Part shown: one piece after another, positions 26,799-63,565 of the stretch
Layout: the number at the start of each line of letters is the position of its first letter
How positions within the stretch are numbered: position 1 is the first letter of the stretch
Assembly: GCA_035529595.1 (NCBI GenBank)
Contig: DATKWK010000017.1
Coordinates: forward strand, 116,970 to 180,969
Direction of reading: 5' to 3'
Length of the DNA: 64,000 nt
Source: Candidatus Bathyarchaeia archaeon
GTDB lineage: Bacteria; Patescibacteriota; Microgenomatia; PFEM01; JAFGMK01
Translations under genes and position numbers: made by a program
Notes under the pieces: generated by a model
What the model was told of the DNA's origin: nothing
Database searches by the model: none
What the model saw: only the letters and a program-made list of their open reading frames with translations

Positions 26799-26801
26799 TT
26801 T

Positions 26802-27188: not shown

Positions 27189-27218
27189 TTGAGGCTTATT
27201 ATAACATTCCTCTTTCAG

Positions 27219-28715: not shown

Positions 28716-28814
28716 TTATAGGGAACGAAACTAGTAAGTCTTTAATAATCTTAAACATATTAACTCAGTTTAGCAGATACGGACAAATTTACTCAAGAGG
28801 GCAATATCTTTTAA

Positions 28815-45843: not shown

Positions 45844-46940
45844 CGGTTAATCTTAGCATTCTTATGGTAAAGAAAAAAGACAAATTCTTAAGTAAGGTAA
45901 GAAGAAAATTATCAAGAAATATCTATCTATTTCGTTTTCTGTTTTTTTCTCTAATAGGCGGTGCCGTAATATTTGCCTTAAATTTCATACTGCCGACTTC
46001 GTTGCGTCTAGTCAGGAGCTTATTTAAAGAGCCCCTGCTTTTAGCTTCTCATTCTTTTGAAGACTTAAGGTCTACAGACGGCCGAATCAATATTTTGTTT
46101 CTAGGAGCCGGGGGTAGTAATCATCAAGGTGCTGATTTAACCGATTCCATAATATTTGTTTCGCTTGGGTTAGAGAATCAAGATATTTTAATGCTTTCTT
46201 TGCCTCGGGATATATGGATTCCTTCAATGAGGGCCAAGATTAATACTGCCTATCATTACGGTGAGAAAAAAAGACCGGGCGGTGGTTTGGTTTTGGCAAA
46301 ATCGGCGGTCAGTGAAATCTTGGACCAGCCGGTCCATTACGCGGTTTTGGTAAATTTCCAGGGATTTATAAAGGCGATTGATCTTCTGGGAGGGGTGGAT
46401 ATCGAAGTCGAGCGGAGTTTTGATGATTATAAATACCCGATTCCGGGTATGGAAAATGCCCAGCCGGAAGAGTTGCGTTTCGAGCAGCTGCATTTTGATG
46501 TCGGTTGGCAGCACTTGGATGGCGACAGGGCGTTAAAATATGCGCGTTCCCGTTACGCTGATGGTGAAGAAGGAACCGATTTTGCCCGTTCAAAAAGACA
46601 ACAAAAATTGATTCTGGCCTTGATGAAAAAAGTCTTTTCTTCTAAAACCTTCTTGAGTCCTCAGCGGATTTTCGAACTGGGCAAAATTTTAAAAGAATAT
46701 CTTGATACTGATCTTTACCAGGAAGACTATCTCTCGTTCCTTGAACTGGCTCTCAGATTTAGACAAGGAGAAATTAGGTCAGCGATACTGGATGGGATAA
46801 CTGGAGTCGAAGAAGGCTATTTAATTAATCCACCCCAGAGTGAAAAGTATGATCAGCAGTGGGTTTTGGTTCCCAGAACCGGCGACTGGCAGGAAATCCA
46901 AAAATACGTTGTTTCCTTGATAGAAAAAAAAGATAAATGA
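45837..46940 (+). CDS. LCP (LytR-CpsA-Psr) family cell-envelope polymer transferase
   Basis: N-terminal transmembrane segment plus INILFLGAGG...DSIIFVSL...LSLPRDIWIP, the LCP core. Confidence 0.7.
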   Translation: MTSVNLSILMVKKKDKFLSKVRRKLSRNIYLFRFLFFSLIGGAVIFALNFILPTSLRLVRSLFKEPLLLASHSFEDLRSTDGRINILFLGAGGSNHQGADLTDSIIFVSLGLENQDILMLSLPRDIWIPSMRAKINTAYHYGEKKRPGGGLVLAKSAVSEILDQPVHYAVLVNFQGFIKAIDLLGGVDIEVERSFDDYKYPIPGMENAQPEELRFEQLHFDVGWQHLDGDRALKYARSRYADGEEGTDFARSKRQQKLILALMKKVFSSKTFLSPQRIFELGKILKEYLDTDLYQEDYLSFLELALRFRQGEIRSAILDGITGVEEGYLINPPQSEKYDQQWVLVPRTGDWQEIQKYVVSLIEKKDK

Positions 46941-46965: not shown

Positions 46966-49122
46966 TTAAATCTGGTAGATTTCGTAAATTTTAGTATTGC
47001 CCGAGCTAAAGATTACCTTCCCAAGAGAACTAAGGACTTCTTCACTTAAGTCAGGATAAGCTTCTTTTTCCAAAGTGCCGACGAAAATATATCTGACTTG
47101 ATATTTTTGCAGTAGTTCTTTGACTTCTTCCAGATTTTGAGAAGTGTAGATTTTTTTCACCTCTTCGGTTCTGGCGGCGGAAATATCGAAGGTTCCCCGC
47201 CACAGCCACTCGTGAACACGCCAGCCTAAGATAGTTGGCAGACCGGTATTGGCACTAACCCGGGCGTAGTCAGTATAGCTTTCTCCAACAGCTTCAACGA
47301 TAACCGGGTCGTCCTTCACATTTTCATTAAGCCAGGTAATCGCCTGATAGTCGTTCGGGTAGGTAGCGGAGAGATATTTCGTACCGTCCAGACCGCGAGA
47401 GGTTTTTAGATCGCCGTAGTAAGATCTGATAGCAAACCGGGGATAGGATATAATTACCGCTGCTCCGGCGGCAAATAAAAAGAAGAAAGCTTTTTTAAAT
47501 CCTTTATTCGCCGAGCCGGTTAAGATTCTGACGAAAATATAACCGCTTAATAAGTAAAATACAACAAAGGCTTGATAAGTAAGCTTAAACATGGTATTGG
47601 CTCGCTGGTGGTTATGAGCGTAGATATCTTTAACGCGCAAGATTTCGGGAAAAGCAATTAAAAGCCAGGAGACGATAATCAGTGTCAGAACCAAATAATC
47701 CGCCGGCTCAACCTTTTTATTTTTTCTGATTAGGGCAACGAAACAGATGGAATTAAAAAGAGGAAAACCCCAAAGAAATAAGAGCATCCATGGTGGTGAG
47801 TGAAAGTCTACCAGGGCAATTCCCTGAGCAATATTTTTAAAATTTAGGTGAAACGGTAAACTGGCAATAATACTGACCAGCACTAACCAAGAACAGAAAC
47901 CGACAGTATCTATCCAGACTTTTTCCCGTTTGCCGGTCAAGTAATTAAAAGACAATATCGCTGCCCCGGCATAGAGGAGATAGATAGGATAATCCCAGGC
48001 ATTAGTCATAAAGGCAATCCCTAACATAAGGGCTAAAAAAGTAAGTAAGGGTAGCTGGTTTAAAGTTGTGTTGATAGTACTGGTAATCAGCGATAAATAA
48101 GGAATTTGCCCCAGTTCATCTTTCAGAACAGAAACGATCTTTTTGCCGATTTTTTGCAATTTTTCTCCAGCTTTAGCCGGTTGTTTATTTTCTTCGCTAA
48201 ATTGATAGAGGCGCTGGAGTAGAGTAATAATTAAGGCAATCATCAAAAGAGCAGTCGGAAGATTAAGGAAATGTCCATGCAGATCAGAAACTACTAAGCT
48301 GTAGCTGGGAAATTCGTGGATAGTGTTATCGGCAGCGCCGAATTTGTCGACAATAAATCTGGTAGCGTCGGGATACCAATAGGTCTTAAGGGTTTTTTCC
48401 GTAAACCAGTGATAAAGAATCTGCCAATTACCGCCGAAGGTAAGCATGAAAGCGGAAAGCAGGCCGCCTATTAATAAGGGCAAGTGGGTTTTTTTCTTTC
48501 CCTGGGACCATTTAATTAAGTTCGAGGTAATCGAGAAACCAGCTGAAAGAGCTTGACCACAGATAGTCGCCAGCATGAGATTATAGGTAATGGCTGAAGC
48601 AATTCCGGAAATCCGGGTTAAAAGGGCGGTTTGGTAGTGGCCGAAGTAATAGTAATTGATGGAATTACCGGCTAACCACATATCATTGGGAGGAAAGAAG
48701 CGGCTTCGTAGAATGGCATTAACAAATCCAAAGTCCATGAATTTTTCCAGACCATTAATGTCAGGTTGAAAAGACCGGATGTGAGCCCAGAAGAAAAGAC
48801 CGAAAACAAAGAGACATTCTTCAAAAATAATTACTCGCCAACCCTTAATAAATTCTACTAAAAGCTGTTTCCGGCGTTTGATTAAATAGAGATTTAAAAG
48901 AATAATTAATGCGATTGAGAGGGAGATTGAAATTCGGGTGAAAGGCAATAGCTTTAAAATTGCCAATAACCAAACTAAATAAGAAACAAGTACCAGGGAG
49001 ATAATTTTGGCAAAAGCATATCCCCGATCGTAAAATTTAACAAACAGTGTCCAAGTTAAAGGAAGGTTGATTAAACCGAGGACAAAGATTATCAACCACC
49101 AATAAAAAGTCGGATTAAGCAT
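46966..49122 (-). CDS. large polytopic membrane protein with a C-terminal extracytoplasmic domain, putative GT-C-like glycosyl/oligosaccharyl transferase
   Basis: About 13 transmembrane helices followed by a ~170-aa soluble domain. AWDYPIY is loosely reminiscent of the STT3 WWDYG motif. Confidence 0.3.
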   Translation of the reverse strand: MLNPTFYWWLIIFVLGLINLPLTWTLFVKFYDRGYAFAKIISLVLVSYLVWLLAILKLLPFTRISISLSIALIILLNLYLIKRRKQLLVEFIKGWRVIIFEECLFVFGLFFWAHIRSFQPDINGLEKFMDFGFVNAILRSRFFPPNDMWLAGNSINYYYFGHYQTALLTRISGIASAITYNLMLATICGQALSAGFSITSNLIKWSQGKKKTHLPLLIGGLLSAFMLTFGGNWQILYHWFTEKTLKTYWYPDATRFIVDKFGAADNTIHEFPSYSLVVSDLHGHFLNLPTALLMIALIITLLQRLYQFSEENKQPAKAGEKLQKIGKKIVSVLKDELGQIPYLSLITSTINTTLNQLPLLTFLALMLGIAFMTNAWDYPIYLLYAGAAILSFNYLTGKREKVWIDTVGFCSWLVLVSIIASLPFHLNFKNIAQGIALVDFHSPPWMLLFLWGFPLFNSICFVALIRKNKKVEPADYLVLTLIIVSWLLIAFPEILRVKDIYAHNHQRANTMFKLTYQAFVVFYLLSGYIFVRILTGSANKGFKKAFFFLFAAGAAVIISYPRFAIRSYYGDLKTSRGLDGTKYLSATYPNDYQAITWLNENVKDDPVIVEAVGESYTDYARVSANTGLPTILGWRVHEWLWRGTFDISAARTEEVKKIYTSQNLEEVKELLQKYQVRYIFVGTLEKEAYPDLSEEVLSSLGKVIFSSGNTKIYEIYQI

Positions 49123-49388
49123 TTAAGAATATCCCCTTTTTTACTTTACTACATCACAATTTTAATTTAAAGAAAACCGATGAATATTTAAGATTCGCTC
49201 TTTATCAATTATAATAACAAAAAGTGACAGTTCAAACTACTGGTACAGATAGCCTCAAGACAATGGGGTGAGATCACCAACAGATACTGACGTAAGTCAT
49301 GCAGGCTGGCTTGGCGTTACGGGCGGGAAGACACCCCGAGGATGGAAGGATTTTGAACTATTACAGCAAAAACAGGAGCTTTGAAAAA

Positions 49389-51050
49389 ATGAAGCAGCAG
49401 AAAAAAATACGCCTCGGTTTTGATCTAGATGGAATAATTGTTGATAAACCTCCGTTAGTTCCAAAAAAAATGATCGAAAGGTTGTTTAAGGGGTCTAAAG
49501 AAAGTCTTTCCTATCGTTTTCCCAAGTCCAAACTAGAACAATTCATCCGTAAGCTTTCCCACTTTTATCTTTTCCGGCCGGCTATTAGAAGAAATATCGT
49601 TTTAATTAGAAATCTTAAGCAACTCAAGAACTACCAGGTTTTCCTTATTTCCTCTCGTTATTCTTTTTTAGCTAAAGAGACAAAATTATGGCTGAAAAAA
49701 AGAAGAATAGCAAATATTTTTAAAGAGATTTATCTCAATACTGAAAACGAGGCGCCGCATCTTTTTAAAGAAAAAATGATCAATAAGTTGAGAATTAACT
49801 ATTTTTTTGAAGATGACCATGACATCGTCAATTATTTAAGAAAGAAGCTGCAAAAAACAGAAGTTCTTTTAGTTGGTCAAAACAGTGAGGGCATGATTGA
49901 AAAGTACATCCGTATCCCAAAGTTAAGAATGCTATTCCTCTTAACCTATTATTACCCTTATTGGACAGGTTTGACTGCTTATGCCCAAAGAACAGCCGAA
50001 GGCTTAGTTGCCAGAGATCATCAAGTTACTGTTTTAACTTCCCGTCATCAGAAAGAATTGCCTTTTTGGGAGACTTTCCGCCACGTAAAGATAATCAGGC
50101 TTAAACCTCTTTTTAGAGTTAGTCGCTCGTTTTTTATTCCTTCGCTTCTTCCGAAGCTGTGGCGTCAATTGAATGAAATTGATGTGCTGATTATCTATTT
50201 ACCTTTTGCCGAAGTTTTACCTGCTGTAATTTTAGCCAAAATTAGAAGAAAAAAAGTATTTTTGATTCATAACGGTGATTTGCTTCTCCCCCGAGGGTTT
50301 TTGAATCGTATTATTGAGAAAACCTATCTTTGGCTGACCAAAATAGCTATCCCCCTGGCTGATAAAACAGTTGTTCAAACTTGGGACTTCGCCTCTCACT
50401 CTCCACTTTTGTCTAAAGTTAAACCAAAACTAATTCAAATTTATCCTCCTGCAGAAATCTTAAAACCCAATCCTCAGGATGTGGCTAATTGGCAAAAAGA
50501 ATTAAATCTTAAAGATAAAAAAGTCATTGGTCTTGTTGGCCGTTTCGTTAAAGAGAAGGGTTTTGACTATTTATTTAAGGCTATACCTTTGATTCTGAAA
50601 ACTTTTCCCCAGGCGGTTATTCTTTTTGCTGGACCGCGGCAAATGGCTTATGAAAATTTTTATCGAGAATGTATTCCTTATATAAAAAAATATCGGGATA
50701 AAGTGATTTTTACAGGCTTGATTCTTGATCGTCAGAAAATGGCTAACTTCTATAAGCTTTTAGATGTTTTTGTTATTTCTTCGCGCCAAGATTGTTTTCC
50801 AGCTACTCAGGTTGAAGCTATGATTTGTCAAGTACCTGTTGTTGCTACCAACATTCCTGGAACAAGAGAGGCCATTAAAAAAACAGGCATGGGTCTTTTA
50901 GTAAAACCGAACTCTCCCAAAGCTCTCGCTAAAGGAATAATTAAGGTTCTTAGAAATCCCACAAAATATATTAAACCGATAAGTAAAAATGAAATTTTTG
51001 ATTCCCAAGAAGCCATAGTTAAATACGAAAGGCTATTTCGGGATGATTAG
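49389..51050 (+). CDS. fusion of an N-terminal HAD-like domain and a C-terminal GT4 (GT-B) glycosyltransferase
   Basis: LGFDLDGIIVD near the N-terminus. The C-terminus has GRFVKEKGFDYL...FAGP and EAMICQVPVVATNIPGTREA (E-x7-E). Confidence 0.5.
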   Translation: MKQQKKIRLGFDLDGIIVDKPPLVPKKMIERLFKGSKESLSYRFPKSKLEQFIRKLSHFYLFRPAIRRNIVLIRNLKQLKNYQVFLISSRYSFLAKETKLWLKKRRIANIFKEIYLNTENEAPHLFKEKMINKLRINYFFEDDHDIVNYLRKKLQKTEVLLVGQNSEGMIEKYIRIPKLRMLFLLTYYYPYWTGLTAYAQRTAEGLVARDHQVTVLTSRHQKELPFWETFRHVKIIRLKPLFRVSRSFFIPSLLPKLWRQLNEIDVLIIYLPFAEVLPAVILAKIRRKKVFLIHNGDLLLPRGFLNRIIEKTYLWLTKIAIPLADKTVVQTWDFASHSPLLSKVKPKLIQIYPPAEILKPNPQDVANWQKELNLKDKKVIGLVGRFVKEKGFDYLFKAIPLILKTFPQAVILFAGPRQMAYENFYRECIPYIKKYRDKVIFTGLILDRQKMANFYKLLDVFVISSRQDCFPATQVEAMICQVPVVATNIPGTREAIKKTGMGLLVKPNSPKALAKGIIKVLRNPTKYIKPISKNEIFDSQEAIVKYERLFRDD

Positions 51051-52743
51051 TAACAAATTCTTTTTTTCCAAAATCAGTCTTTTAGCTATAGCTATAATTT
51101 GTTGCTCTGTTTCTATATTTATTTACGCTTCAGATAATAAGTTGGTTTTTTACCGGTTAACTTTCTTTCTTTGGATAGCTAGCCTTCTTCTGATATTTTT
51201 TTTTGTTGTCTTTTCTTCTCACCGTCAGTCTATTTCCTATAAAAAGTCCCCAAAAGAGGTCCTTTTTCTCTTTATCTTGATTCTTTTTTCTGGCTTTATT
51301 AGGTTTTATCGACTCACTGAAATTCCTCTTCTTAGTGGCGATGAAGTTCGAGATGCTGGTTTTTTACCAGAAGCTTTTTTAAGAGGGGAGATAAAAGATC
51401 TTTTCGGTCACGGAATTTACGGGATTCCCAATCTCTTTTTTGCTCTAGCCTCAATTCCTCATCTTTTATTTGGCCATTCAGTTTTGTCAATTAGATTCTT
51501 TGCGGCTTTCTTTGGTGTTCTAGCAGTAGTTTTGACCTATTTTCTAGGTAAAGAACTTTTTAATTCCCAAGTTGGTAAAATTGCTTCTATCTTAATGGTT
51601 ACCTATCATGTTCATGTTCATTTTAGTCGCAGTGAATTTATCAATAATTTAGATTCCTTTTGGGCTCCCCTAGTGGCAATTTTGCTTTTGAAAACGTTTA
51701 GCAATCCATCTGCTTCTCTAATCTTTGGCCTCTTTTTAGGACTGGGCTTTCATCTTTATCAAGGAATTAGAGCCTTTTTGATTTACTCATTCATCTATTT
51801 TATATTTTGGACTGTTAATAATTGCTACCGGAACACTAGACGGTTTTTGGTTAGATTCGGTTATTTATTATCCGGAATAATTTTAGGTTTAGGACCTTCA
51901 GTTGTGGTTATTCTGAAGAGACCTAAGGAATTCTTTAATACAGGCACTGCTGGAGGGTTACTACCATTTCAGATAGGGATCCAAGATTTTCTGTCGGTTT
52001 TTCCTGAGCGTCTTTTGAATTCTTTTGGTGCGCTAATTCGTTATCCTATTGATTTTCATTATCGTTATGGCGGTCCCTTTTTAGAAGCCCCTCTTAACTT
52101 ATTTTTTTTGGTCGGTTTTCTTGTTTGCTTCCAGAAGCTGTCAAAGAAAGAATATAACTTCATAATTTTTTGGCTTTTCTTTGTAATTCTTATTAATAGT
52201 ACTTTTCTTAGAGGTATGAATTTTACCCATCGGCTTCTCAGTCTGGTTCCAGCCATTATGCTTACAGTTTCTTTGGGAATAATCCGCTTTGCGACTTTCT
52301 TTAATAAGCAACCCAGGCTCTATCGGGTGTTCTTGGTTTTAGTAATGGTAATTTCTCTTTTTTATAACCTGAAAAGATATTTTTACGACTTGGTTTGGAG
52401 AAATGCCTACGATTCCAATACTAAAGTGAGTACCACTGCTGGTTTTTTCACTGCTGAATTACCTGCTCAAACAAAGATATTTTTTTTAAACTCTCCTCGA
52501 ATGAGCTGGGAAAGTTGTCCTAGCTGGAAATATCTTGCGCCTCACGCCTATATAGAGGATTTGACAGAAGAAAATTTTACCTCGGTTTTAGCCTCTTTGT
52601 CACCAGACAGTCGTCTGGTATTTATCGCCCTCCCTGAAAGGATTAATGATCTAGAAAAGATAGAGAAACTTTGGCCGCTGGGGATTAAGAAAAAAAAGTC
52701 GTATGGAGGAGAATTGCTTTTTGTCAGCTACAAGCTTAATTGA
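51043..52743 (+). CDS. GT-C fold membrane glycosyltransferase (ArnT/PMT-like)
   Basis: LSGDEVRD motif in the first loop. Polytopic. Confidence 0.5.
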   Translation: MISNKFFFSKISLLAIAIICCSVSIFIYASDNKLVFYRLTFFLWIASLLLIFFFVVFSSHRQSISYKKSPKEVLFLFILILFSGFIRFYRLTEIPLLSGDEVRDAGFLPEAFLRGEIKDLFGHGIYGIPNLFFALASIPHLLFGHSVLSIRFFAAFFGVLAVVLTYFLGKELFNSQVGKIASILMVTYHVHVHFSRSEFINNLDSFWAPLVAILLLKTFSNPSASLIFGLFLGLGFHLYQGIRAFLIYSFIYFIFWTVNNCYRNTRRFLVRFGYLLSGIILGLGPSVVVILKRPKEFFNTGTAGGLLPFQIGIQDFLSVFPERLLNSFGALIRYPIDFHYRYGGPFLEAPLNLFFLVGFLVCFQKLSKKEYNFIIFWLFFVILINSTFLRGMNFTHRLLSLVPAIMLTVSLGIIRFATFFNKQPRLYRVFLVLVMVISLFYNLKRYFYDLVWRNAYDSNTKVSTTAGFFTAELPAQTKIFFLNSPRMSWESCPSWKYLAPHAYIEDLTEENFTSVLASLSPDSRLVFIALPERINDLEKIEKLWPLGIKKKKSYGGELLFVSYKLN

Positions 52744-53825
52744 TTTGGCGAACCAAAGATTTTTAAAGTTAGTAAACTATTGATAATACTCTGATAAGCT
52801 TCACAGGGTGTCCAGCAATTAGGACAGTATCCGGCCTTAATTAATTTTCGGGTTTTTAAAATTTCTTGTTTTCTTTTTGTAGAGAACCTTTTTAAATCTA
52901 GATTAAAGTCTCGAATGTTACCAAGAATTCTATTCCACATAAAGCAGGGTGTAATATTTCCCTTTGCGTCGATTGCTATCGAGCTTTCTAAAGCAATACA
53001 AGTCAATGGTTGTATCCGTGGTTTCCGGTAAAATTCGGAAATCCGTTCCAGATATATTCTTTCGACAAGATCAATAACTGAGCTTATTTTCAAATTTTTT
53101 TTGATTATGTCGATGACCCTGTTTAGGGTTTTACTGTCGTGATTAAGTCCGGTAAAACTCTTGTTGTCTTCTAGATTTTGATATAAATAACCTTTATGGG
53201 CAATTGTCACTGTTATTTTATGTCCTTCAGTAGTCAGTTTTCTAAAAAAACTTTCCAAATATTTTAAGTTATATTTAGAAATAGTTGTTTCAAGATTCAC
53301 TGCTAAGCGAGGTTCCTTTCCAGAAAGAGCTAGGATATTTTGATAAGTCGACCAGGTTTTCTTGTAAGCTCCAGAAATTCCGCGTATTTTGTCATGGATT
53401 TTTTCGGGGCCGTCGAGAGAAAAATTAATAAAGAGATTAGCTAAAGGTAAGCTTAGGATTTCCTGAACCTTTTTAATTACCGTATCTTGCAGTAAACCAT
53501 TAGTGGGAATGCTGATCAGAGAGAGGGAAGGAAGATTTTGCAATGCAATATTACAGATTTCAACTAAATCTTTCCTTAAAAAAGGTTCGCCACCGGAAAG
53601 GCTTAGCCAAACAAAGGATTTTGGAGCACTGATAAATATCTTCTCGATTTCACGAAGACTGAGATCTTTTTTTTGCAGATTAGAGTTGCTGTTGTATCCA
53701 CGCCAAACATTACAAGTTTTACAGCGGGAATTACAGGCAGAAGTAACGGCGAAATTTAATTTATAGGGATGTTTCTTTAGTTTGGAAACAATGATCGACC
53801 TAATAATTCCTGTTTTTTTTCTCAT
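52728..53825 (-). CDS. radical SAM protein with a Cys-rich C-terminal (SPASM/twitch-like) region
   Basis: CNSRCKTC (CX3CX2C) at the N-terminus. The C-terminus has CFMW...CPNCWTPCEAY. Confidence 0.6.
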   Translation of the reverse strand: MRKKTGIIRSIIVSKLKKHPYKLNFAVTSACNSRCKTCNVWRGYNSNSNLQKKDLSLREIEKIFISAPKSFVWLSLSGGEPFLRKDLVEICNIALQNLPSLSLISIPTNGLLQDTVIKKVQEILSLPLANLFINFSLDGPEKIHDKIRGISGAYKKTWSTYQNILALSGKEPRLAVNLETTISKYNLKYLESFFRKLTTEGHKITVTIAHKGYLYQNLEDNKSFTGLNHDSKTLNRVIDIIKKNLKISSVIDLVERIYLERISEFYRKPRIQPLTCIALESSIAIDAKGNITPCFMWNRILGNIRDFNLDLKRFSTKRKQEILKTRKLIKAGYCPNCWTPCEAYQSIINSLLTLKIFGSPNQLSL

Positions 53826-55534
53826 TGTTTTCTGGCAAAGATTATTACTTTCGGGTGGTCGTAAACCGTAAAAGATTCATCAGCATCCTGGTCCGGAAAA
53901 CAAAAAAGCGGTTTTCCCACAGGTGGAAAGCAGGGATAAGAAACAAATTCAGCTACCCTTATAAAATCTAGTTTTTCCTCAAATAATTCTTGATAGTATT
54001 TACTAGTTTGCGGATATATCTCCGGCAGTTTCGGTATTGAGCCTGATAATCGGTTGGAAGATAGAATAAGATAATCTGTCTTCTCAAGTATTTTATTAAT
54101 CTCTTTCCATTTTTCTTGATTTTCTTGATTGTAGAGAGGTAGTTGCTCTCCTTTATAGATACTGGCAGGGTTTCCCTTAAATGAAATTGGTAACCAATCG
54201 TCCCAATGTTCACCGGCTAAGAATGAGTCCGCGGGAATATTTTTATAGATCCAGTAAGAGGCAGTTATTCTCGAATGAGGGTGTAGATAGATCGACAAGA
54301 AAGAAAGGGGATAAATTAATACCAAGATTCCCAAAATCCATCGCCAAATAATTAGCTTCGAAGTGTTCCTTTGAAAAAAAGCTGCTGTCAGAATAGCTAA
54401 AAAAGGATAAATAGGGTAGAAATAACGCATTCCTTTAGCGAACTGAATTCCCTGATAAAAGAATGTTCCGGTAACGAAGGTTACTGTTAAAAAAAGGTTT
54501 ATGTCGCTTGTTCCAATCAGTTTCATCGATTTTTTTTGAACCAATTTTTTTATCTTTTTTACTATCCTAAGAGATTGTTCAATCAGGGCTAAAATAGCCA
54601 GCACTCCAAGGGGCAATCCTAAACCTCTGAGGATCAGATTTTTGAGGGGGAAAATAATCGGCTTAGTTTTGATCCACTGAATTGCAGGAGGAAAAAGTGA
54701 CTCCGGTCGGTTAAAAGAAGCAAGTTCTTTTAGATTATTAATGAACTGCTGATTCAGCGATAGGTCAAAAAAATTTCTGGAAGAAAATATTCGAGGATCG
54801 CCGATTCTTAAGAATAAATAGGTAAAGATAATAAAGATCAGTATAGAACTGGTAGCTTGAAGTGGTTTTCTTTCTTTAATAAGCATAAATATTAGTCCTA
54901 AGAGGATTGTTGCTATACCAAAGATAGCCGTAACTTTGGAGGCTAGCGCCAGTCCGATTACGACACCCATTAAGGCGGAAATGATAGCGTTGTTTTTGGG
55001 ATGATTGATGAGATGAAATAAAAGATAAAGTCCGAGAGTATTGCCAAAAACCAAAAAAGGTTCAACCGCAAAAAAATGGGCTAGTTGGATCGGTAGAACG
55101 CTTATGGCATAAAAAAATAAGGCCCAGAGGGCAATTTTGTTTCTTTGTCTGTCTTTTTCAAAAAGTTCACGACTGACAAAGAAAACCAGAATGAGAACAG
55201 CTGTTTCAAGCAGGGCGGAAATTGCCCGGCCAACTATAGTGAAGCGGTTGTAATCAGCCAGCTTAAAGGATTCAGCAACCAGTTTGACAAAATTTAAAGG
55301 AAAGGTGCCGTAAACAAAGAAGTTATAATTATTGTTGTAGGGATTTAGAGAAGAGATAGACGGATCTAAATAATCACTAAAGCTTGCCGGAAATTTTATT
55401 TGCACGCCTACCATTGTTAAAAAGCGTTCGTCCGGATGTAAATGCTGGTTCTCGTCCCAATTAAGGTTAAGGGTCCTAATCGATAAACCAAGAAGAAGAA
55501 TAATAATGAAAGTCAGTTTCTCTTTACCGTTCAT
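53822..55534 (-). CDS. GT-C fold membrane glycosyltransferase (ArnT/PMT-like)
   Basis: HPDERFL motif in the first loop. Polytopic. Confidence 0.5.
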   Translation of the reverse strand: MNGKEKLTFIIILLLGLSIRTLNLNWDENQHLHPDERFLTMVGVQIKFPASFSDYLDPSISSLNPYNNNYNFFVYGTFPLNFVKLVAESFKLADYNRFTIVGRAISALLETAVLILVFFVSRELFEKDRQRNKIALWALFFYAISVLPIQLAHFFAVEPFLVFGNTLGLYLLFHLINHPKNNAIISALMGVVIGLALASKVTAIFGIATILLGLIFMLIKERKPLQATSSILIFIIFTYLFLRIGDPRIFSSRNFFDLSLNQQFINNLKELASFNRPESLFPPAIQWIKTKPIIFPLKNLILRGLGLPLGVLAILALIEQSLRIVKKIKKLVQKKSMKLIGTSDINLFLTVTFVTGTFFYQGIQFAKGMRYFYPIYPFLAILTAAFFQRNTSKLIIWRWILGILVLIYPLSFLSIYLHPHSRITASYWIYKNIPADSFLAGEHWDDWLPISFKGNPASIYKGEQLPLYNQENQEKWKEINKILEKTDYLILSSNRLSGSIPKLPEIYPQTSKYYQELFEEKLDFIRVAEFVSYPCFPPVGKPLFCFPDQDADESFTVYDHPKVIIFARKQ

Positions 55535-55554
55535 AATGGTCTCCGAAATTTCAA

Positions 55555-57288
55555 TTATTTTATAAAATTAATATTTAGGCAGAGATTAAGTAAATCCTTA
55601 TATTTCTTTTCTGAGTAGAAGAGGGTTTTTTTATATAGCCGGATAACCGGGTGGTCAAAAACCGACCAGGTTTCTTCGGCTAATTCGTCAGGAATTTCCC
55701 ATTTCCAGTCGTACATATCAATTGATGGGTAGGAGGTAAATTCTTTAATTTTAGCATATCCTAACCGGTCGGAAAAAAGAAGTCGGTAGTAACAAGCTAC
55801 TTTCGGGTATTGGCCAGCCGGATGGTCGGCAAAAATTCGCCTTGAGGGAATTAAAAGATACTGACTGTCGGCTAAAGTGTCAAACAGCTTATCAAAGAGA
55901 ACTTTTTCCTGGTCAAGATTGTAAAAATCAAGATTAACAACGCGGAAATTCCCCTTCAGGGGAATATCAACCACGTTGCCACCCTCACTTAAGATTTTGC
56001 TTTCCGGAGGAAGATTATCTCTCATCCATTCCGAGGCTGTAATTCTAATATCCGGTTGAAGATAAATTGAAAAAAAAGCCAGACCGTAGATAAAGCTGAC
56101 GGTAATTAGCAAGATAATAAATGCATTTCGGAAAATTATAATTTTTTTGGATTGATATCGTGCAGAGTCGCTTTGCTGCCTAAATTTAACTTGAATCCTA
56201 TTCTCAAAAAATTCAATTATTTCCAAGGAGAATATAACAAAAAAGGGTAATAGGGGCGTGACAAATCTGGTCCATTTGGCAAATATCAGGCCGCTGGTAG
56301 TAAAATAACTTGCAAAAGCCCAGATTAAAAGAATCTTTTCCGGTTGTTTTCTGATCCTTTTCCGGATGATGTTTATCAGGGTTAGAAATAACCCAAGAAG
56401 ACCGGTGATTTCCATAAATGGATTGAGACTAAAAGGAAAGATCTGAACAAGTTGAAAGATAACTGGCTGGGTATTAATAAATTGGCGGGTATAAAAAACC
56501 GGGATTTTGCCACGAGCGACGTTAATTTCATACTGAGCGACACGCCAAAACTCGGAAAAATCAAGCACCTGGTATGGTGAAGTGAGAAAAGAAACCAAAA
56601 AAGCCCCCAGCAGAGATATGCTTAATAAGAGAAAAAGCTTTTTCTGCCGCCAAATTTTCTTTAAGGAGAAATTTGCCTCAAGTAAAGCGATAAAAGGGAA
56701 ACTAAAAAAGACTAAAGCATTAAGCTTAGTGGAAAGCCCGATCCCCAAGATGATGGCTAAGAATAAAAATATTTTTTTATTGGGTGTTTTTTTAAGCAGT
56801 TCAAGCGAATGGTAAAGAGTGGTAAAAAAAAGCAGAGTCAGGACTGATTCAGTTGTTCCGAAATGGCTTGCCTGGATTAATCCCGGGATAAAACTGGTCA
56901 GAATGGCAGCTAAAAGCCCGTATTGTTTATTAAAAACCCTTTGACCGATCAGATAAACTACCCAAATAGTTAATGTCGAGGCAAACGCTGCCCATAGACG
57001 AAGGCTGCTGATTGCTTCCGGGAAAGACACCGGACTTAAGGAAAAGTGATTGATCAAATTCGGTAGTTGTTTGGTCAGATAAACCCAATAAATTGGAAAA
57101 TGCCCATAGGCAAAAAAATGAGGATGAAAATCCGGCGGTTTGAGTTGGCTGATGCTGCTGGCAATGTTATTCTCATCCGGGTGAAAAAATAAACCCTCGC
57201 CCCAATCTAGGCGATAGAAGCGAAAAAAAGCACCTAAAAGAAGCGTCACAAATAGAGCTGTCTTGTGAAATCTGTCTTTTTTACTCAT
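55555..57288 (-). CDS. GT-C fold membrane glycosyltransferase (ArnT/PMT-like), paralogue of 53822..55534
   Basis: HPDENNI motif. Polytopic. Confidence 0.5.
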   Translation of the reverse strand: MSKKDRFHKTALFVTLLLGAFFRFYRLDWGEGLFFHPDENNIASSISQLKPPDFHPHFFAYGHFPIYWVYLTKQLPNLINHFSLSPVSFPEAISSLRLWAAFASTLTIWVVYLIGQRVFNKQYGLLAAILTSFIPGLIQASHFGTTESVLTLLFFTTLYHSLELLKKTPNKKIFLFLAIILGIGLSTKLNALVFFSFPFIALLEANFSLKKIWRQKKLFLLLSISLLGAFLVSFLTSPYQVLDFSEFWRVAQYEINVARGKIPVFYTRQFINTQPVIFQLVQIFPFSLNPFMEITGLLGLFLTLINIIRKRIRKQPEKILLIWAFASYFTTSGLIFAKWTRFVTPLLPFFVIFSLEIIEFFENRIQVKFRQQSDSARYQSKKIIIFRNAFIILLITVSFIYGLAFFSIYLQPDIRITASEWMRDNLPPESKILSEGGNVVDIPLKGNFRVVNLDFYNLDQEKVLFDKLFDTLADSQYLLIPSRRIFADHPAGQYPKVACYYRLLFSDRLGYAKIKEFTSYPSIDMYDWKWEIPDELAEETWSVFDHPVIRLYKKTLFYSEKKYKDLLNLCLNINFIK

Positions 57289-57296
57289 TCTTATGC

Positions 57297-58559
57297 TTAA
57301 CTTTCTTTATTTTCCTTTAAAACAAGGCCGGCAATTTTTCTGCCCAACTCGATCGAGTAGTTTAATCCCCGATCCCACGGATAAATTTGTTGGAGATTTG
57401 CCAAATAAACATTCGGAATTGGCGTTACGTGATCGGGGATCATTTCAGCGTAGTTAACTGAAACAACCGGTTGAGCGCATAAACTTTTATGGCAAATAAT
57501 ATCGATAATATCAGTATCAAACTTAAATTCAGGGTTAATTCTCTTTAAGAAAGGCAAAAATTCCTTCAAAATCAGTTTTTTTTCCATTTTAAAATAACGA
57601 TGATTTTGAGGATAATAACCGCCGACATAGAGAAGACGGTGATTACCATAAAATTGAGTGCCAATAAAATTAGTATGTTCATCAACAAAAACAAAAGGGA
57701 ATTCCCGTTCGTTGATATTAAGCCAGTAACTACCATCCCGCAAAAAGCTTTTTTTAAGAATCAGCAGTAAGTTAAGAGCACCGACCAGGTGTAATTTTTT
57801 AAGAGCTCTTCGGTAATTGTTCGGCAAGTCATTGGTGATTTTCAAAAATATATCGGTTGGACAAGTAACGATTACCTTGTCAAAATTGCGGGCAATGTTA
57901 TCAAGGCTGGTGACCTCGGTGTTTAATATAACCCTGCCCCCATTACTTTTGATGTGATTGATTAATTCATTAAGTAAAATATTGAATCCGCCTCTTAAAT
58001 ATCCGAGTTTTATGCTTCTTTTCTTAATTCTTGCCCATAACCAACTCATAGAAATTTTACTGGCATCACAGCCAAATTTACTTTTAAGAAGCGGCTGCCA
58101 GAGTAATTCCGAAACTCTTTTTCCATAATAGCGCTCAGTCCAGGTAAAAGCAGTCTGTTTTTCCAGTTTTTGCCAGGAGGAAGTAGCTTTCAAATGAAAA
58201 GTACTCGATCCAATCCGGGCTTTCTCTGTCCAGGAAAAAATAGGAGCCTTAAGGATGGAAAAGGGGGAGTCGAATTGAAAAAGCCGTTCTCTAAGATAAA
58301 TTGAAGTTTTTGGTCTGACAAAGAAAAGTCTATCGTTTAGTTTAAGCTCACCGATTAGTTTACAAGCCTCATGATCCGAAGTAAAAAGATGGTGCGGAAA
58401 GTATTCAAGCGGCCAATTCCAATTCTTATATTGATAACTGGCAGCCAATCCACCGGCAAATTTTTCCTTTTCAAAAACCGTGACTTTCTGATTCCGTTGC
58501 GACAGATATAGTCCGGCGGTTAGTCCGCAAATGCCAGCACCGATAATGGCAATTTCCAT
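57297..58559 (-). CDS. FAD/NAD(P)-binding oxidoreductase (amine-oxidase / PPOX / UGM-like Rossmann fold)
   Basis: IAIIGAGICGLTAGLYL...VFEKEKFAGGLA dinucleotide-binding motif. Confidence 0.5.
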   Translation of the reverse strand: MEIAIIGAGICGLTAGLYLSQRNQKVTVFEKEKFAGGLAASYQYKNWNWPLEYFPHHLFTSDHEACKLIGELKLNDRLFFVRPKTSIYLRERLFQFDSPFSILKAPIFSWTEKARIGSSTFHLKATSSWQKLEKQTAFTWTERYYGKRVSELLWQPLLKSKFGCDASKISMSWLWARIKKRSIKLGYLRGGFNILLNELINHIKSNGGRVILNTEVTSLDNIARNFDKVIVTCPTDIFLKITNDLPNNYRRALKKLHLVGALNLLLILKKSFLRDGSYWLNINEREFPFVFVDEHTNFIGTQFYGNHRLLYVGGYYPQNHRYFKMEKKLILKEFLPFLKRINPEFKFDTDIIDIICHKSLCAQPVVSVNYAEMIPDHVTPIPNVYLANLQQIYPWDRGLNYSIELGRKIAGLVLKENKES

Positions 58560-58589: not shown

Positions 58590-59201
58590 TTAAATAGGGA
58601 GGAGTAATCCGAACAGAAGGATGAAAAGACCGGCGACGATAAAAACGCTGGTTTCAATTGCGCCCCCAGCCTTGGGTAGTTCGCTGATTGACGTCGGTGT
58701 TGGACTCAAGGTAGGTTTTGGAGTTGAAGTCGGCCCCGGAGTTGGAGTCGGTGTTGACGACGGTTGTCCGGTTGGGGTTGGAGTCTGGGTACTGGTGGGT
58801 GTCGGAGTAGGACTCGGGCAAACACAATCTTCCTCTCTTGGGCAGTCCGAGCTAACGCAGCGTTTTGAAGTATCGTTGGCGCTCGGTTTCTGACAGACTA
58901 GAGTATCCGGGCAATCAGAATCACTATCACAGGTATCCCAGCATTCGGGTATTGGCGTCGGAGTTGGAGTCGGTGTTTGAGAAACTGGCGGCGTCGGAGT
59001 TGGAGTCGGTGTTGGTGTCGGGATATCAAATTCTAAAATACATTCAGGAGCTACCGCCCCCGGTTGACTTTCCGGTTGTGTGGGCGCTACCGGCCTTTTT
59101 CCTACTTGGTAAAGTTTCCAGGCAGTAACAACAGCAGCAACTCCCAAAACTAAAGTCAGACAAATAAGTGCCGCTAGATACCAATTTTTCTTTAGATTCA
59201 T
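58590..59201 (-). CDS. secreted Pro/Thr-repeat protein with a Cys-rich module and a C-terminal LPKAG + hydrophobic tail
   Basis: Signal anchor, PTPTPTPTP linkers, a cluster of about 10 Cys, and a terminal ELPKAGG followed by a hydrophobic stretch. Confidence 0.4.
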   Translation of the reverse strand: MNLKKNWYLAALICLTLVLGVAAVVTAWKLYQVGKRPVAPTQPESQPGAVAPECILEFDIPTPTPTPTPTPPVSQTPTPTPTPIPECWDTCDSDSDCPDTLVCQKPSANDTSKRCVSSDCPREEDCVCPSPTPTPTSTQTPTPTGQPSSTPTPTPGPTSTPKPTLSPTPTSISELPKAGGAIETSVFIVAGLFILLFGLLLPI

Positions 59202-59210
59202 ATATTTATC

Positions 59211-60524
59211 CTAGAGCCAGCCTAATGATGAATGATGGACTTCGGCTTCCACTCGGAAATGATAAGTTGCCGTCGGAATCGTGTAACTAATATAATAAAT
59301 GGTCTCGTTGCCGATTGTTCTCTGTTCAGCCGTCGTTAGCCATTCACCACCATTGATCCTGAACCGGGCACCATCGATATTTCCCTGGCTAAAAGAGGCG
59401 CTAACGCCAAAATAAATTATCTCTCCAGCTTGAAGGGAAGAATAATTGGTGATTGCTTCCCATTCCTCGTTATAGGCATGGATCCAATCACAACTGGCCG
59501 AGGGAGTCGGAGTCGGGGTCGGTGTCGGGACCCCAGTTGGGGTAGGAGTTGGAGTAATGGTTGCAGTTTCGCCACACCACTCTACTTTGACAATTGCTAG
59601 ATGAGAACCCGGAGAACTAGTGTCTCCGGTAAAATTAACAGTTACTGATAATTCGTTTTCGGTAAAGGATCCATGAACAGAGCCGCAACAAAATGTCTGG
59701 CCTTCCAGTTCTTCGTTTCCAAAATCGGGACAATTGACAGTACCTAAAGGCGTCACTAATTCGTGGACTTCATTGCTCTGAAATTGGTTTGGGTCGCCGC
59801 TCCACTGCCAAGAATTGTGGATAACAACATGGGTAGCATTTTCTGGCCTGGTAAAGGTATGCTGGAAAGATGGTTTTTGCGGTTGCCAAACTTCAGTGCT
59901 CCAGGTTTCATCATCAATTAATGGCTTACCGATTATTGTTTCGCAGTCAGGACATTCCCCCTGAGCCGGAGTCGGTGTTGGTGTCGGAACCCCAGTTGGG
60001 GTAGGAGTTGGAGTCGGCACCGACGTGGGAGTCGGAGTTGTCGTCGGACAATTGAAAACTTGGTATCGTCCCGAAGCATTGGGATTACCGTTTTGATAAA
60101 CTTCCCATTCTACCCAATCTTCGCTTACCAGAGGGAAATCGTAAGAAAAATAGTCGGAATACTGACAAGTACTCTCAGTAGTAGTAAATTCTTGTTCTTG
60201 CCATTCAGTAGTGCCTTCTTTACGAACTTTCCCCAGCCACGTACCTATGTCGCAAACATATATTCTCCAGCTATAACAGTCGCCTTCATTATGGCAGGCA
60301 GCCGTTCTAATATCTTGACGTTCCCTGATAAAAAAAAGAGTAGCAACCAGGGAGCCGGCAGTGAGTCCCATTCCGAGAAAAAGTCCTAATTTCTTTAAAT
60401 TTAAGCGCCTTTTTTCATTCGGTACAATCGCCTTTGTCTCCGCCACTGGCTCACTGAGTTTGTCTGGATCCTGTGGGTTAACTTGGCTTTGATTATTCTG
60501 ATTTTCCATTCTATTTTTTAACAA
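59211..60524 (-). CDS. membrane-anchored surface protein with PT-linkers and beta-sandwich-like domains
   Basis: N-terminal transmembrane segment and two (TPTPTP)n linkers. Confidence 0.35.
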   Translation of the reverse strand: MLKNRMENQNNQSQVNPQDPDKLSEPVAETKAIVPNEKRRLNLKKLGLFLGMGLTAGSLVATLFFIRERQDIRTAACHNEGDCYSWRIYVCDIGTWLGKVRKEGTTEWQEQEFTTTESTCQYSDYFSYDFPLVSEDWVEWEVYQNGNPNASGRYQVFNCPTTTPTPTSVPTPTPTPTGVPTPTPTPAQGECPDCETIIGKPLIDDETWSTEVWQPQKPSFQHTFTRPENATHVVIHNSWQWSGDPNQFQSNEVHELVTPLGTVNCPDFGNEELEGQTFCCGSVHGSFTENELSVTVNFTGDTSSPGSHLAIVKVEWCGETATITPTPTPTGVPTPTPTPTPSASCDWIHAYNEEWEAITNYSSLQAGEIIYFGVSASFSQGNIDGARFRINGGEWLTTAEQRTIGNETIYYISYTIPTATYHFRVEAEVHHSSLGWL

Positions 60525-61929: not shown

Positions 61930-61983
61930 AGGTCGATAAACATTTCCCGGTTATTGAATTAGTAGACTTAATAAAAAGATACT

Positions 61984-63479: not shown

Positions 63480-63565
63480 TGAACAATAAAAAGTGATTGT
63501 TAAACTGATTTCTAGAATACAATAAAGAAGCGGCTGATTGCAATAGAGAGGAATAATATTTTGGA

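Follow-up and report, generated by a model that had tools for sequence, protein, structure and literature searches.

We analysed a 64,000-nucleotide stretch of contig DATKWK010000017.1 (assembly GCA_035529595.1), hereafter the window, and in particular a gene cluster that an earlier note, made from the letters alone, had described as an envelope-glycosylation locus at positions 46966 to 58559. The open reading frames (ORFs) named in that note are all present at their positions, and the predicted family assignments were confirmed with Pfam and NCBIfam. The stretch is a genuine gene cluster for sugar decoration of the cell surface, acting outside the membrane, and because its gene order recurs in dozens of related contigs, the clustering is not a product of chance. 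The features of the cluster are listed below, with proteins referred to hereafter by the first coordinate of their gene.

45864–46940, plus strand: LytR-CpsA-Psr (LCP) glycopolymer ligase, 358 amino acids (Pfam LytR_cpsA_psr 8e-31; TIGR00350), convergent with the DUF2298 gene.
46966–49122, minus strand: DUF2298/TIGR03662 'Chlor_Arch_YYY' protein, 718 amino acids, modelled as a transferase of GT-C fold whose globular C-terminal domain is AglB-like.
49123–49388, no strand: divergent intergenic region between the DUF2298 and HAD-GT4 genes, a likely promoter region and one edge of the variable cassette.
49389–51050, plus strand: 553-amino-acid fusion of a haloacid dehalogenase (HAD)-like phosphatase domain (approximately 49389–49900) and a GT4 glycosyltransferase (approximately 49910–51050; Glycos_transf_1 3e-32, Glyco_transf_4 1e-12).
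51043–52743, plus strand: third GT-C membrane glycosyltransferase, PMT_2 type, 566 amino acids (PMT_2 2.6e-9), with GDE after transmembrane segment (TM) 3.
52728–53825, minus strand: radical S-adenosylmethionine (SAM) enzyme, 365 amino acids, with a partial SPASM/twitch C-terminus (Radical_SAM 6e-12, SPASM 7e-4).
53822–55534, minus strand: GT-C membrane glycosyltransferase, 570 amino acids, paralog of the 55555 protein (PMT_2 and PMT above cutoffs), with HPDE after TM1.
55555–57288, minus strand: GT-C membrane glycosyltransferase, 577 amino acids, directly downstream of the FAD gene (PMT_2 9e-14, PMT 3e-8), with HPDE after TM1.
57297–58559, minus strand: cytoplasmic flavin adenine dinucleotide (FAD) oxidoreductase, 420 amino acids, similar to phytoene desaturase (PDS) and protoporphyrinogen oxidase (PPO) (Amino_oxidase 6e-27; full-length member of PRK07233).

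The window lies on a metagenome contig of 385 kb (JGI 3300031539, Ga0307380_10000013). The gene content of the window is bacterial (FemAB, LCP, PilN/PilO, ribosomal protein S20, GroEL, VanW, and an M23 peptidase), and the nearest homologs of three window proteins belong to Pacebacteria, Shapirobacteria, and 'Microgenomates group' genomes; the DNA therefore comes from a Microgenomates-type bacterium of the Candidate Phyla Radiation (CPR). Proteins identical to those encoded at 46966–49122, 52728–53825, and 57297–58559 carry the NCBI label 'MAG TPA: Candidatus Bathyarchaeia archaeon'. Judging from gene content and nearest homologs, both of Microgenomates type, the whole contig has probably been mis-binned in an archaeal metagenome-assembled genome.

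The earlier note had allowed that the membrane proteins might lack matches to GT-C families. The 51043, 53822, and 55555 proteins all scored above the Pfam gathering cutoff for PMT_2 (37.9, 27.8, and 52.4 bits, respectively, against 26.1), and the latter two also did so for PMT (26.4 and 34.1 bits against 22.7). The motifs LSGDEVRD, HPDERFL, and HPDENNI quoted for them are present, and H36, P37, D38, and E39 of the 55555 protein are invariant in seven orthologs and paralogs. Each protein has 8–10 TM segments predicted by hydropathy. In a simple hydropathy scan combined with the positive-inside rule, HPDE lies just after TM1 in the 53822 and 55555 proteins and GDE lies after TM3 in the 51043 protein; given these positions and the K/R-rich N-termini, the D-E motifs are predicted to face outward, in agreement with the topology the note had expected. 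The description of the three proteins as paralogs applies to 53822 and 55555, which are 25% identical over their full length (E 8e-35), but not to 51043, which is just a distant GT-C relative: BLASTP matched it to one of the pair over the N-terminal core only (E 7e-11) and did not match it to the other, and hhalign comparison of its family with the other two families gave 99.1% and 98.8%. Neither the 55555 protein nor the HPDE profile found a significant sequence match in the PDB, ArnT being the sole GT-C protein touched by the HPDE-family profile (E 0.25). On the basis of family knowledge, the GT-C proteins would use a polyprenyl-phosphate-linked sugar donor.

The 46966 protein, previously put forward as a weak fourth GT-C candidate, can be upgraded: it matches DUF2298 with 318 bits and TIGR03662 with 487 bits (above cutoff), and comparison of its structure model assigned it a GT-C fold with an AglB-like C-terminal domain. 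Structure comparison alone was informative here, and for DUF2298 only, a PDB sequence search with the DUF2298 profile having returned nothing significant. Three additional N-terminal TM helices precede the catalytic loop in comparison with STT3, AglB, and PglB, and the equivalent outer loop follows TM4 and bears the invariant residues E126 and D130 and the YYY motif. The protein is not placed among STT3 proteins by sequence, in that it has neither an STT3 Pfam match nor the WWDYG motif; its C-terminal domain carries an invariant GWxVHEWLWRG instead. The literature yielded no functional study of DUF2298. The fold assignment provides a probable activity for the DUF2298/TIGR03662 family, which, from its TIGRFAM description, we take to be common to Chloroflexi and archaea. 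TIGR03663, the PMT-like partner family of TIGR03662, did not match the 51043, 53822, or 55555 protein at E ≤ 0.01.

The LCP protein that had been noted at 45837 was likewise recovered (LytR_cpsA_psr 107.7 bits against a cutoff of 24.6; TIGR00350 89.4 against 62.3), with the public gene call starting at 45864 and 45837 being the start of a TTG-initiated ORF. For the HAD-GT4 gene the start is probably 49389, as in the public gene call, whereas the first-ATG ORF begins at 49299. The GT4 half of the fusion proposed earlier is well supported (Glycos_transf_1, 112 bits), whereas the HAD half, in the N-terminal ~200 amino acids, is suggested by the motifs DLDG, S-S/G-R, K157, and D172-D173, which are conserved in seven family members; its HMM matches are sub-threshold only (LNS2 0.006, HAD_2 0.07), and NCBIfam gave none for this domain.

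The Rossmann-type FAD oxidoreductase at 57297 was confirmed by Amino_oxidase (95.4 bits against a cutoff of 19.8) and PRK07233 (386.7 against 252), the next NCBIfam matches being HpnE and CrtI/CrtD. An AlphaFold2 model (pLDDT 94) was most similar in fold to rice PDS (5mog; TM-score 0.85, E 3e-25), with PPO structures next, and sequence matches in the PDB were PDS, PPO, and PF1083, with no UDP-galactopyranose mutase (UGM). The family is 47–58% identical across Microgenomates; for PRK07233 flavoproteins we found no functional study in the literature. Neither a signal peptide nor a TM segment is present, which places the activity of the enzyme on the cytoplasmic side. The ring contraction of UGM type that had been proposed for it is not supported by these data, there being no GLF match and the best structural matches being PDS and PPO. 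Two further identities were considered and rejected. The protein is not a DprE1, given that it lacks the FAD_binding_4 domain of the vanillyl-alcohol oxidase (VAO) type, its Pfam matches all being Rossmann-type GR2 and its fold that of PDS/PPO. A protoporphyrinogen oxidase, as its homologs are named by JGI, or a carotenoid enzyme was rejected on genomic context, there being no heme or carotenoid genes nearby and the UbiA protein of the window having the motifs of DPPRS and not those of lycopene elongase.

The radical-SAM protein at 52728 with a Cys-rich C-terminus was also confirmed (Radical_SAM 46.4 bits against a cutoff of 29.5; SPASM 20.2 bits, just below the cutoff of 21.5), and a SPASM match is carried by many of its homologs. 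Invariant in 33 homologs are C31, C35, and C38 (CX3CX2C) as well as C276, C294, C334, C337, and C341 (CX12GX4C...CX2CX3C). In comparison with the seven-Cys SPASM motif CX9-15GX4C...CX2CX5CX3C...C, the 52728 protein thus has CX12GX4C followed by CX2CX3C only, or five conserved auxiliary Cys residues rather than seven or three. It shares the CX3CX2C core and a C-terminal auxiliary-cluster domain both with the sugar enzymes BtrN, HygY, and NeoN and with the peptide maturases SkfB, CteB, and PapB. Radical-SAM epimerases and dehydrogenases acting on sugars are established (NeoN, HygY, and BtrN; PMC10991966). The twitch region of 52728 aligns weakly with that of BtrN (E 0.003), and the glycan-pathway setting is similar, but in sequence the protein is closer to the peptide maturases, and it falls far below the cutoff of every curated radical-SAM family (best, the PTO1314 family, 75 against 306 bits). 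Because the closest relatives are peptide maturases and the lipid-acting GDGT-MAS and the sugar-acting BlsE and BtrN are weaker matches, the chemistry is not fixed by sequence. C-methylation, which had been suggested as one possible sugar modification, is unlikely for this enzyme given that no B12 domain was detected in it.

The radical-SAM family is large (3022 matches at E ≤ 1e-10) and spans DPANN archaea (Micrarchaeota, Woesearchaeota, and Aenigmatarchaeota), Bathyarchaeia, Chloroflexota, Cloacimonadota, Desulfobacterota, Planctomycetota, and Bacillota. Neighbours were clustered without bias in 84 loci, with Pfam then run on representatives. The most frequent was a small GT2 of 219–310 amino acids, mostly encoded immediately upstream of the radical-SAM gene (43 of 84 loci), followed by an epimerase/dehydratase for sugars of the short-chain dehydrogenase/reductase (SDR) type (17), GT4 (10), a B12–radical SAM protein (10), a methyltransferase (8), and a carbamoyltransferase (8). 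Large polytopic proteins lay within two genes of the radical-SAM gene in 29 loci, and PMT_2-like GT-C genes detectable with profiles lay within five genes in 20. The recurrence of GT2, SDR, GT4, and GT-C neighbours identifies this as a family of glycan-pathway enzymes. A specific pairing with the 51043-type GT-C holds in four CPR loci; outside CPR it was rejected, the 51043 type being the best match in six of 84 loci and adjacent in three. In Cloacimonadota a fixed gene order was observed, consisting of a 142- to 157-amino-acid protein, GT2, radical SAM, and a one-TM protein with a weak match to PQQ_2/BamB-type repeats.

To place the cluster in its lineage, we compared it with approximately 90 related loci (L numbers), roughly 60 of them informative, found via the radical-SAM and FAD proteins. 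Given that phmmer with single sequences was too insensitive for GT-C neighbours, neighbours were clustered and their TM segments counted, Pfam was run on representatives, and the loci were annotated with hidden Markov model profiles built from the loci themselves. The recurrent order is PilN, PilO, a small protein, an fn3/Big_13 protein, one or two Pro/Thr-rich proteins, the FAD gene, one or more GT-C genes, a variable block, DUF2298, LCP (convergent), UvrD, and FemAB. The gene directly after the FAD gene is GT-C-like in 55 loci and UbiA in six, accounting for 61 of the 61 loci with downstream sequence, and in the six FAD-UbiA loci a GT-C gene comes next wherever the contig reaches far enough. 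Among the 36 loci that reach DUF2298, the number of GT-C genes between FAD and DUF2298 is one in 21, two in 11, three in three, and four in one. The LCP gene follows DUF2298 in 24 of 25 related loci. Genes of the cluster, in the window and in its relatives, overlap or are spaced by 30 nucleotides or less.

The Microgenomates core accordingly consists of a Pro/Thr-rich LPxAG-anchored protein, the FAD enzyme, one to four GT-C genes, DUF2298, and LCP. A variable cassette sits between the first GT-C gene and DUF2298; that of the window holds the second paralog, radical SAM, the third GT-C, and HAD-GT4. Among the loci, the contents of this block include extra GT-C, methyltransferase, GT4, HAD-like, DUF362, UbiA, SDR epimerase, and radical-SAM genes; the cassette of the window is rare and among the most elaborate versions. 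Orthologs of 53822 were present in 16 of 36 loci and the HAD-like domain is a separate gene adjoining GT4 in L003, L097, L120, and L169. The radical-SAM gene was found in three of 36 loci and additionally in L169, with a 51043-type GT-C gene adjoining it (orthologs in L002, L003, and L169) and a HAD module nearby in all four cases. The flavoprotein is thus an invariant core partner of the GT-C genes in Microgenomates, and, given the frequencies of 61 of 61 and three of 36 loci, the radical-SAM enzyme is accessory. Neither gene belongs to an unrelated operon in relatives, as the earlier note had asked of the genomic context. One might speculate that the cassette diversifies the glycan between strains.

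Two observations on these loci stand apart. The commonest gene after FAD (23 of 61 loci) encodes a polytopic protein of ~546 amino acids without a Pfam or NCBIfam match (L086:11253-12893, L087:11399-13042, and 21 others); hhalign related it to DUF2298 (97.7% over 473 columns), with a weaker relation to the HPDE GT-C proteins (94%), so that it probably represents a further unannotated GT-C family. L169 (JGI 3300079517 Ga0671557_0004) is a rearranged locus in which DUF2298 is divergent from a series led by UbiA, followed by GT-C, GT-C, and radical SAM; it also contains the 51043-type GT-C, an SDR epimerase, a methyltransferase, GT4, the HAD module, and three PT203-like genes, with no FAD gene within 17 kb. 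From this single case, the FAD and SDR enzymes may be alternatives to each other.

Upstream of the FAD gene the window encodes surface proteins that bear on the question of the acceptor.

58590–59201, minus strand: PT203, Pro/Thr-rich surface protein of 203 amino acids that contains a Cys-rich module and ends in an LPKAG tail resembling a sorting signal, a candidate acceptor.
59211–61929, minus strand: 437-amino-acid Pro/Thr-rich protein (PT437) and 472-amino-acid fn3/Big_13 protein with a Pro/Thr-rich C-terminus (Pfam), downstream of PilN/PilO.

PT203 gave weak matches to Gram_pos_anchor and LPXTG. The order PilN, PilO, p102, fn3, PT437, PT203, FAD is conserved in relatives, and Pro/Thr-rich proteins with a conserved ELPxAG tail (Pro, Thr, and Ser together 30–54%) lie immediately upstream of FAD in 41 of 50 loci. 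The region 58590–63569 forms a co-directional block that is seen also in loci L086–L168, comprising PilN, PilO, a protein of ~100 amino acids, fn3/Big_13, a Pro/Thr-rich protein, and an ELPxAG-tailed Pro/Thr-rich protein with a hydrophobic segment after the tail; some of the ELPxAG-tailed proteins contain 17–37 Cys residues. This block may be a CPR-specific component of the type IV pilus apparatus that spans the wall, or a set of sortase-anchored glycoproteins. With regard to the acceptor, both an LCP-ligated wall glycopolymer and the upstream Pro/Thr-rich proteins are plausible, and the two are inseparable by sequence.

A candidate source of the sugar donor is encoded elsewhere in the window, next to a second glycan cluster.

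24802–25746, minus strand: UbiA-family enzyme similar to polyprenyl-phosphate 5-phosphoribosyltransferase (DPPRS/PPPRS), a candidate maker of a lipid-linked pentose donor.
25692–30308, minus strand: second glycan cluster (Pfam, NCBIfam), comprising a WecA/MraY-like phosphotransferase, a 128-amino-acid small membrane protein, a 498-amino-acid GT-C-like protein (27219–28715), and a 497-amino-acid GT2.

The UbiA protein matched NCBIfam PRK12324 (1.4e-57) and gave equivalog scores of 195.1 and 193.7 bits, just below the cutoffs of 207 and 234. Its only PDB matches were Mycobacterium tuberculosis DPPRS (8j8j and 8j8k, E 2.8e-30), and it keeps the catalytic NDxxDxxxD and KRxAE motifs, which appear in the alignment with that enzyme as FNDVIDLPSD and GKRRAEL. 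In L002 the UbiA ortholog overlaps with the genes on either side of it, FAD and the first GT-C, UbiA lies between FAD and GT-C also in L112, L122, and L167, and in the short contigs L117, L140, and L165 just a UbiA match or FAD-UbiA adjacency is visible. The further GT-C-like gene that had been pointed out at 27219 bears YGDE after TM1 and is related to the 53822 family by hhalign (93.5%), with no Pfam match.

An extracytoplasmic pentofuranose pathway has been described that comprises a polyprenyl-phosphoribose synthase dependent on phosphoribosyl pyrophosphate (PRPP) together with a HAD phosphatase, a flippase, and a GT-C, and in which the cytoplasmic SDR enzyme ORF13 or DprE1/DprE2 converts lipid-linked ribofuranose into other pentofuranoses (PMC11127046). 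The presence of UbiA points to lipid-linked pentofuranose donors as in the decaprenylphosphoryl-arabinose (DPA) and 'three-component' pathways, and with moderate confidence we infer that the UbiA enzyme makes at least one of the donors, a polyprenyl-phospho-pentofuranose. The earlier suggestion of an unusual modification preceding polyprenyl-linked transfer is a reasonable idea, supported by the DPPRS-like UbiA in the window and in the clusters of relatives, with the exception of UGM contraction.

Taken as a whole, the explanation that we favour, and which we consider somewhat likelier to be right than wrong, is an extracytoplasmic surface glycosylation system of a Microgenomates-type CPR bacterium with tailoring of the lipid-linked donor. 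The locus encodes four GT-C-fold transferases (55555, 53822, 51043, and DUF2298) with acidic motifs predicted to face outward, together with an LCP ligase, a cytoplasmic GT4–HAD-like fusion, a cytoplasmic PDS-like flavoprotein, and a cytoplasmic radical-SAM enzyme. By analogy with known families, sugars would be loaded onto polyprenyl phosphate in the cytoplasm, the lipid-linked sugar would be flipped across the membrane, and the GT-C enzymes would transfer the sugar on the outside, the acceptor presumably being a wall glycopolymer, attached to peptidoglycan by LCP, or the upstream Pro/Thr-rich LPxAG-anchored proteins. Less certainly, the donor would be a polyprenyl-phospho-pentofuranose derived from PRPP by the DPPRS-like UbiA, and the 5-phosphate of the ribose may be taken off by the HAD module, as happens in the published pentofuranose systems. 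More speculatively, the ever-present flavoprotein and the optional radical-SAM enzyme might act on the lipid-linked donor before flipping, on either its sugar or its lipid part; a ribose hydroxyl might, for example, be oxidised or epimerised, a role played elsewhere by DprE1/DprE2, SDR ORF13, or ArnD. In keeping with this, PDS, to which the flavoprotein is closest, acts on isoprenoid substrates bound to membranes.

Among the closest known systems are the three-component systems of Citrobacter youngae O1/O2 (ORF15-ORF14-ORF12 and, optionally, the epimerase ORF13; PMC11127046). Shared with them are a UbiA-family protein with NDxxDxxxD, here a putative PRPP-dependent polyprenyl-phosphoribose synthase, a HAD-like module, a GT-C predicted to act outside the membrane, and optional cytoplasmic enzymes that would alter the lipid-linked pentose, an SDR epimerase being present in L169. 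In those systems, however, the GT-C is GT136, and those of the window were assigned as PMT_2 and DUF2298 types, which may or may not belong to GT136; tailoring by a PDS-like flavoprotein or a radical-SAM enzyme, for both of which there are candidates here, is not known from them; and the genes lie together, an arrangement of PPPRS-like and GT-C genes that is seen for the present system in L002 and L169. The mycobacterial DPA/arabinan pathway (DPPRS Rv3806c, Rv3807c, DprE1/DprE2, the GT-C enzymes AftA-D and Emb, and the ligase Lcp1) differs in that DprE1 has a VAO fold rather than the PDS/PPO fold and in its PAP2 phosphatase, for which no counterpart was found here; the present organism is an anaerobic, Gram-positive-like CPR bacterium with no known arabinan or galactan chemistry. 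In the ArnC-ArnD-ArnE/F-ArnT pathway, the 4-amino-4-deoxy-L-arabinose donor is built on undecaprenyl phosphate, modified in the cytoplasm by ArnD, flipped, and moved by the PMT_2 GT-C enzyme ArnT. The same logic of loading, modification, flipping, and transfer is proposed here, although the Arn donor synthase is a GT2 and not UbiA, its modifier is a deformylase, and its acceptor is lipid A. Finally, GT39 PMT proteins and the pilin arabinosyltransferase TfpW resemble the present proteins in Pfam PMT/PMT_2 matches, in the D-E motif of the first outer loop, in having Pro/Thr-rich secreted proteins as plausible acceptors, and in that the cluster adjoins type IV pilus genes; in contrast to PMT, the present proteins have no MIR domain, their C-terminal soluble domain has no sequence kinship to solved proteins, and their scores are just above threshold.

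Several observations weigh against this explanation. The region from S20/PilNO to UvrD/FemAB is syntenic as a block in the lineage, and adjacency by itself therefore overstates functional linkage. The window UbiA lies ~22–30 kb from the cluster, and UbiA is inside the cluster in only six or seven of ~60 loci. Within the cluster we recognised no gene for a flippase (MATE or SMR), a dedicated one being encoded by the three-component systems; a MurJ gene flanks the locus in relatives. Since it is GT4, and not UbiA as in the three-component systems, to which the HAD module is fused or adjacent, a two-step GT4/phosphatase reaction of the sucrose-phosphate-synthase or MshA type, which the HAD module may serve, is equally suggested. 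The amine-oxidase/PDS/PPO fold usually carries out C-C or C-N dehydrogenation, for which alcohol oxidation would be atypical, and the flavoprotein has no DprE2-like reductase beside it. Among solved proteins, those nearest in sequence to the radical-SAM enzyme are the peptide maturases SkfB (1e-16) and CteB.

These points leave room for other explanations, of which some concern the role of the flavoprotein. The fold and family matches to PDS, PPO, HpnE, and CrtI/CrtD, all of which act on isoprenoid chains or hydrophobic macrocycles, would also suit an enzyme that saturates or desaturates an isoprene unit of polyprenyl phosphate, for instance to give a dolichol-like α-saturated carrier for PMT/STT3-like GT-C enzymes, and such a modification would set the carrier pool of the GT-C enzymes apart from that of peptidoglycan. 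The flavoprotein accompanies GT-C genes whatever the sugar-related cassette holds, and the GT-C proteins resemble the dolichol-dependent PMT, STT3, and ALG enzymes. Bacterial GT-C enzymes, however, generally accept undecaprenyl or decaprenyl carriers that are unsaturated. The polyprenol reductases known so far are of the SRD5A3/DFG10 family, with none that is PDS-like in a review (PMC13586052), and we found no functional study of a PDS-like polyprenol reductase in the literature; moreover, the position of UbiA between FAD and GT-C, when it is in the cluster, also fits action on the UbiA product. We consider this modification of the carrier rather unlikely, though worth keeping in mind. Much less probable is a UGM-like mutase that contracts a pyranose to a furanose on a nucleotide sugar or a lipid-linked sugar: UGM shares the superfamily fold (TM-score 0.73–0.78), and one 55%-identical homolog (P0174) has a precomputed GLF-domain match, but the window flavoprotein has no GLF (PF03275) match at E ≤ 0.01, UGM structures appear only from rank 20, after PDS, PPO, and amino-acid oxidase and with 13–14% identity, and the PDB sequence search returned none. 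The idea that the FAD gene, for which the JGI name is 'protoporphyrinogen oxidase', and the radical-SAM gene serve unrelated housekeeping or cofactor functions and are kept near the GT-C genes by regional synteny draws on that name and on the conservation of the flanks (MurJ, S20, and PilNO to UvrD and FemAB) as a block. The cassette varies widely, yet UbiA alone ever separates FAD from GT-C, the genes overlap, heme and carotenoid genes are lacking nearby, and the radical-SAM family occurs in glycan clusters of unrelated phyla, all of which makes this idea highly improbable.

The remaining alternatives concern the surface proteins. Were the radical-SAM enzyme not a sugar enzyme at all, it could form thioether crosslinks or epimerise residues in the Cys/Asp-rich modules of surface proteins, as its closest solved and curated relatives (SkfB, CteB, YydG, PqqE, and PapB types) and the CWDTCDSDSDCPD-type Cys/Asp-rich stretches of PT203, homologs of which have up to 37 Cys residues, would suggest. 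Cys-rich PT203-type proteins are common, however, whereas the radical-SAM gene was present in just three of 36 CPR loci; its non-CPR neighbours are GT2, SDR epimerase, GT4, carbamoyltransferase, and GT-C genes rather than small Cys-rich peptides; and the enzyme is cytoplasmic, whereas the proposed substrate is secreted and has at least 200 amino acids. We therefore regard a maturase as very unlikely. A more credible alternative, still well short of an even chance, is that the locus serves mainly protein O-glycosylation, with the PMT-like GT-C enzymes and the AglB-like DUF2298 protein glycosylating Thr/Ser-rich linkers rather than building a wall polysaccharide; the targets would be the co-transcribed surface- or pilus-associated proteins fn3/Big_13, PT437, and LPxAG-anchored PT203. 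This reading is compatible with the donor side of the explanation that we favour. Against it, the FAD–GT-C module of L003 directly follows S20 without PilNO or Pro/Thr-rich genes, the LCP ligase is the more constant neighbour, DUF2298 lacks the STT3 hallmarks described above, and the acceptor is not readable from sequence.

The system we favour is of a known kind, in which GT-C enzymes glycosylate outside the membrane from lipid-linked donors that other enzymes have tailored. The obligate partnership with a PDS-like flavoprotein, DUF2298 as a GT-C with an AglB-like domain, the optional radical-SAM enzyme, and the placement beside pilus and Pro/Thr-rich surface-protein genes appear to be undescribed; our search of the literature for functional studies of CPR glycosylation returned none. 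A bolder combination of these elements would be that Microgenomates tailor polyprenyl-phosphate-linked sugars ahead of the GT-C step with two enzyme types new to glycan-donor pathways, a PDS-fold flavoprotein as obligate GT-C partner (either a DprE1 analog that shares no homology with it and needs no quinone, or the first polyprenol saturase of PDS type in a prokaryote) and an oxygen-independent twitch/SPASM radical-SAM epimerase or dehydrogenase, and that DUF2298 is an AglB-like transferase glycosylating sortase-anchored Pro/Thr-rich proteins. That all of these hold jointly we consider unlikely.

With regard to gene packing, the 3' ends of the convergent radical-SAM and 51043 genes share 16 nucleotides (52728–52743), and the start codons of the divergent UvrD-like helicase and LCP genes are ~20 nucleotides apart (45843–45864), leaving almost no space for separate promoters. 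Promoter-like sites lie back to back in the DUF2298/HAD-GT4 intergenic region (49188–49215, plus strand; 49235–49208, minus strand). The promoter and terminator scan as a whole was not above shuffled expectation, and statements on operons therefore rest on gene spacing. Elsewhere in the window, an alpha-2-macroglobulin-like protein is encoded at 28–2466 (A2M, TED, bMG10), the N-terminal stretch of which matches Pretoxin-HINT and intein-splicing domains; its ORF starts near the window edge, and the gene may be longer or hold an intein. The 183-amino-acid ORF at 39998–40549 covers the first half of the MFS_1 model only (profile positions 2–172 of 347) and may be a truncated or split transporter gene. 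Two further envelope-related genes encode a CapA/PGA_cap-type protein, linked to poly-gamma-glutamate capsule synthesis (14294–15295), and a DUF2330 protein with a CBM_4_9 carbohydrate-binding domain (19809–21377).

CPR bacteria are ultrasmall, mostly uncultured, and attached to other cells, and little is known of their surface chemistry, which, given this attached way of life, probably governs host recognition and phage susceptibility. The anatomy of the present locus comprises a conserved core of PDS-like flavoprotein, GT-C enzymes, DUF2298, and LCP beside pilus and surface-protein genes and a hypervariable cassette that recalls the diversity loci of O-antigens or teichoic acids. The analysis connects the locus with the recently defined lipid-linked pentofuranose pathways. 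It also nominates two families as candidates for donor tailoring, the PRK07233 flavoproteins and the radical-SAM family with GT2 neighbours that is widespread in bacteria and archaea.

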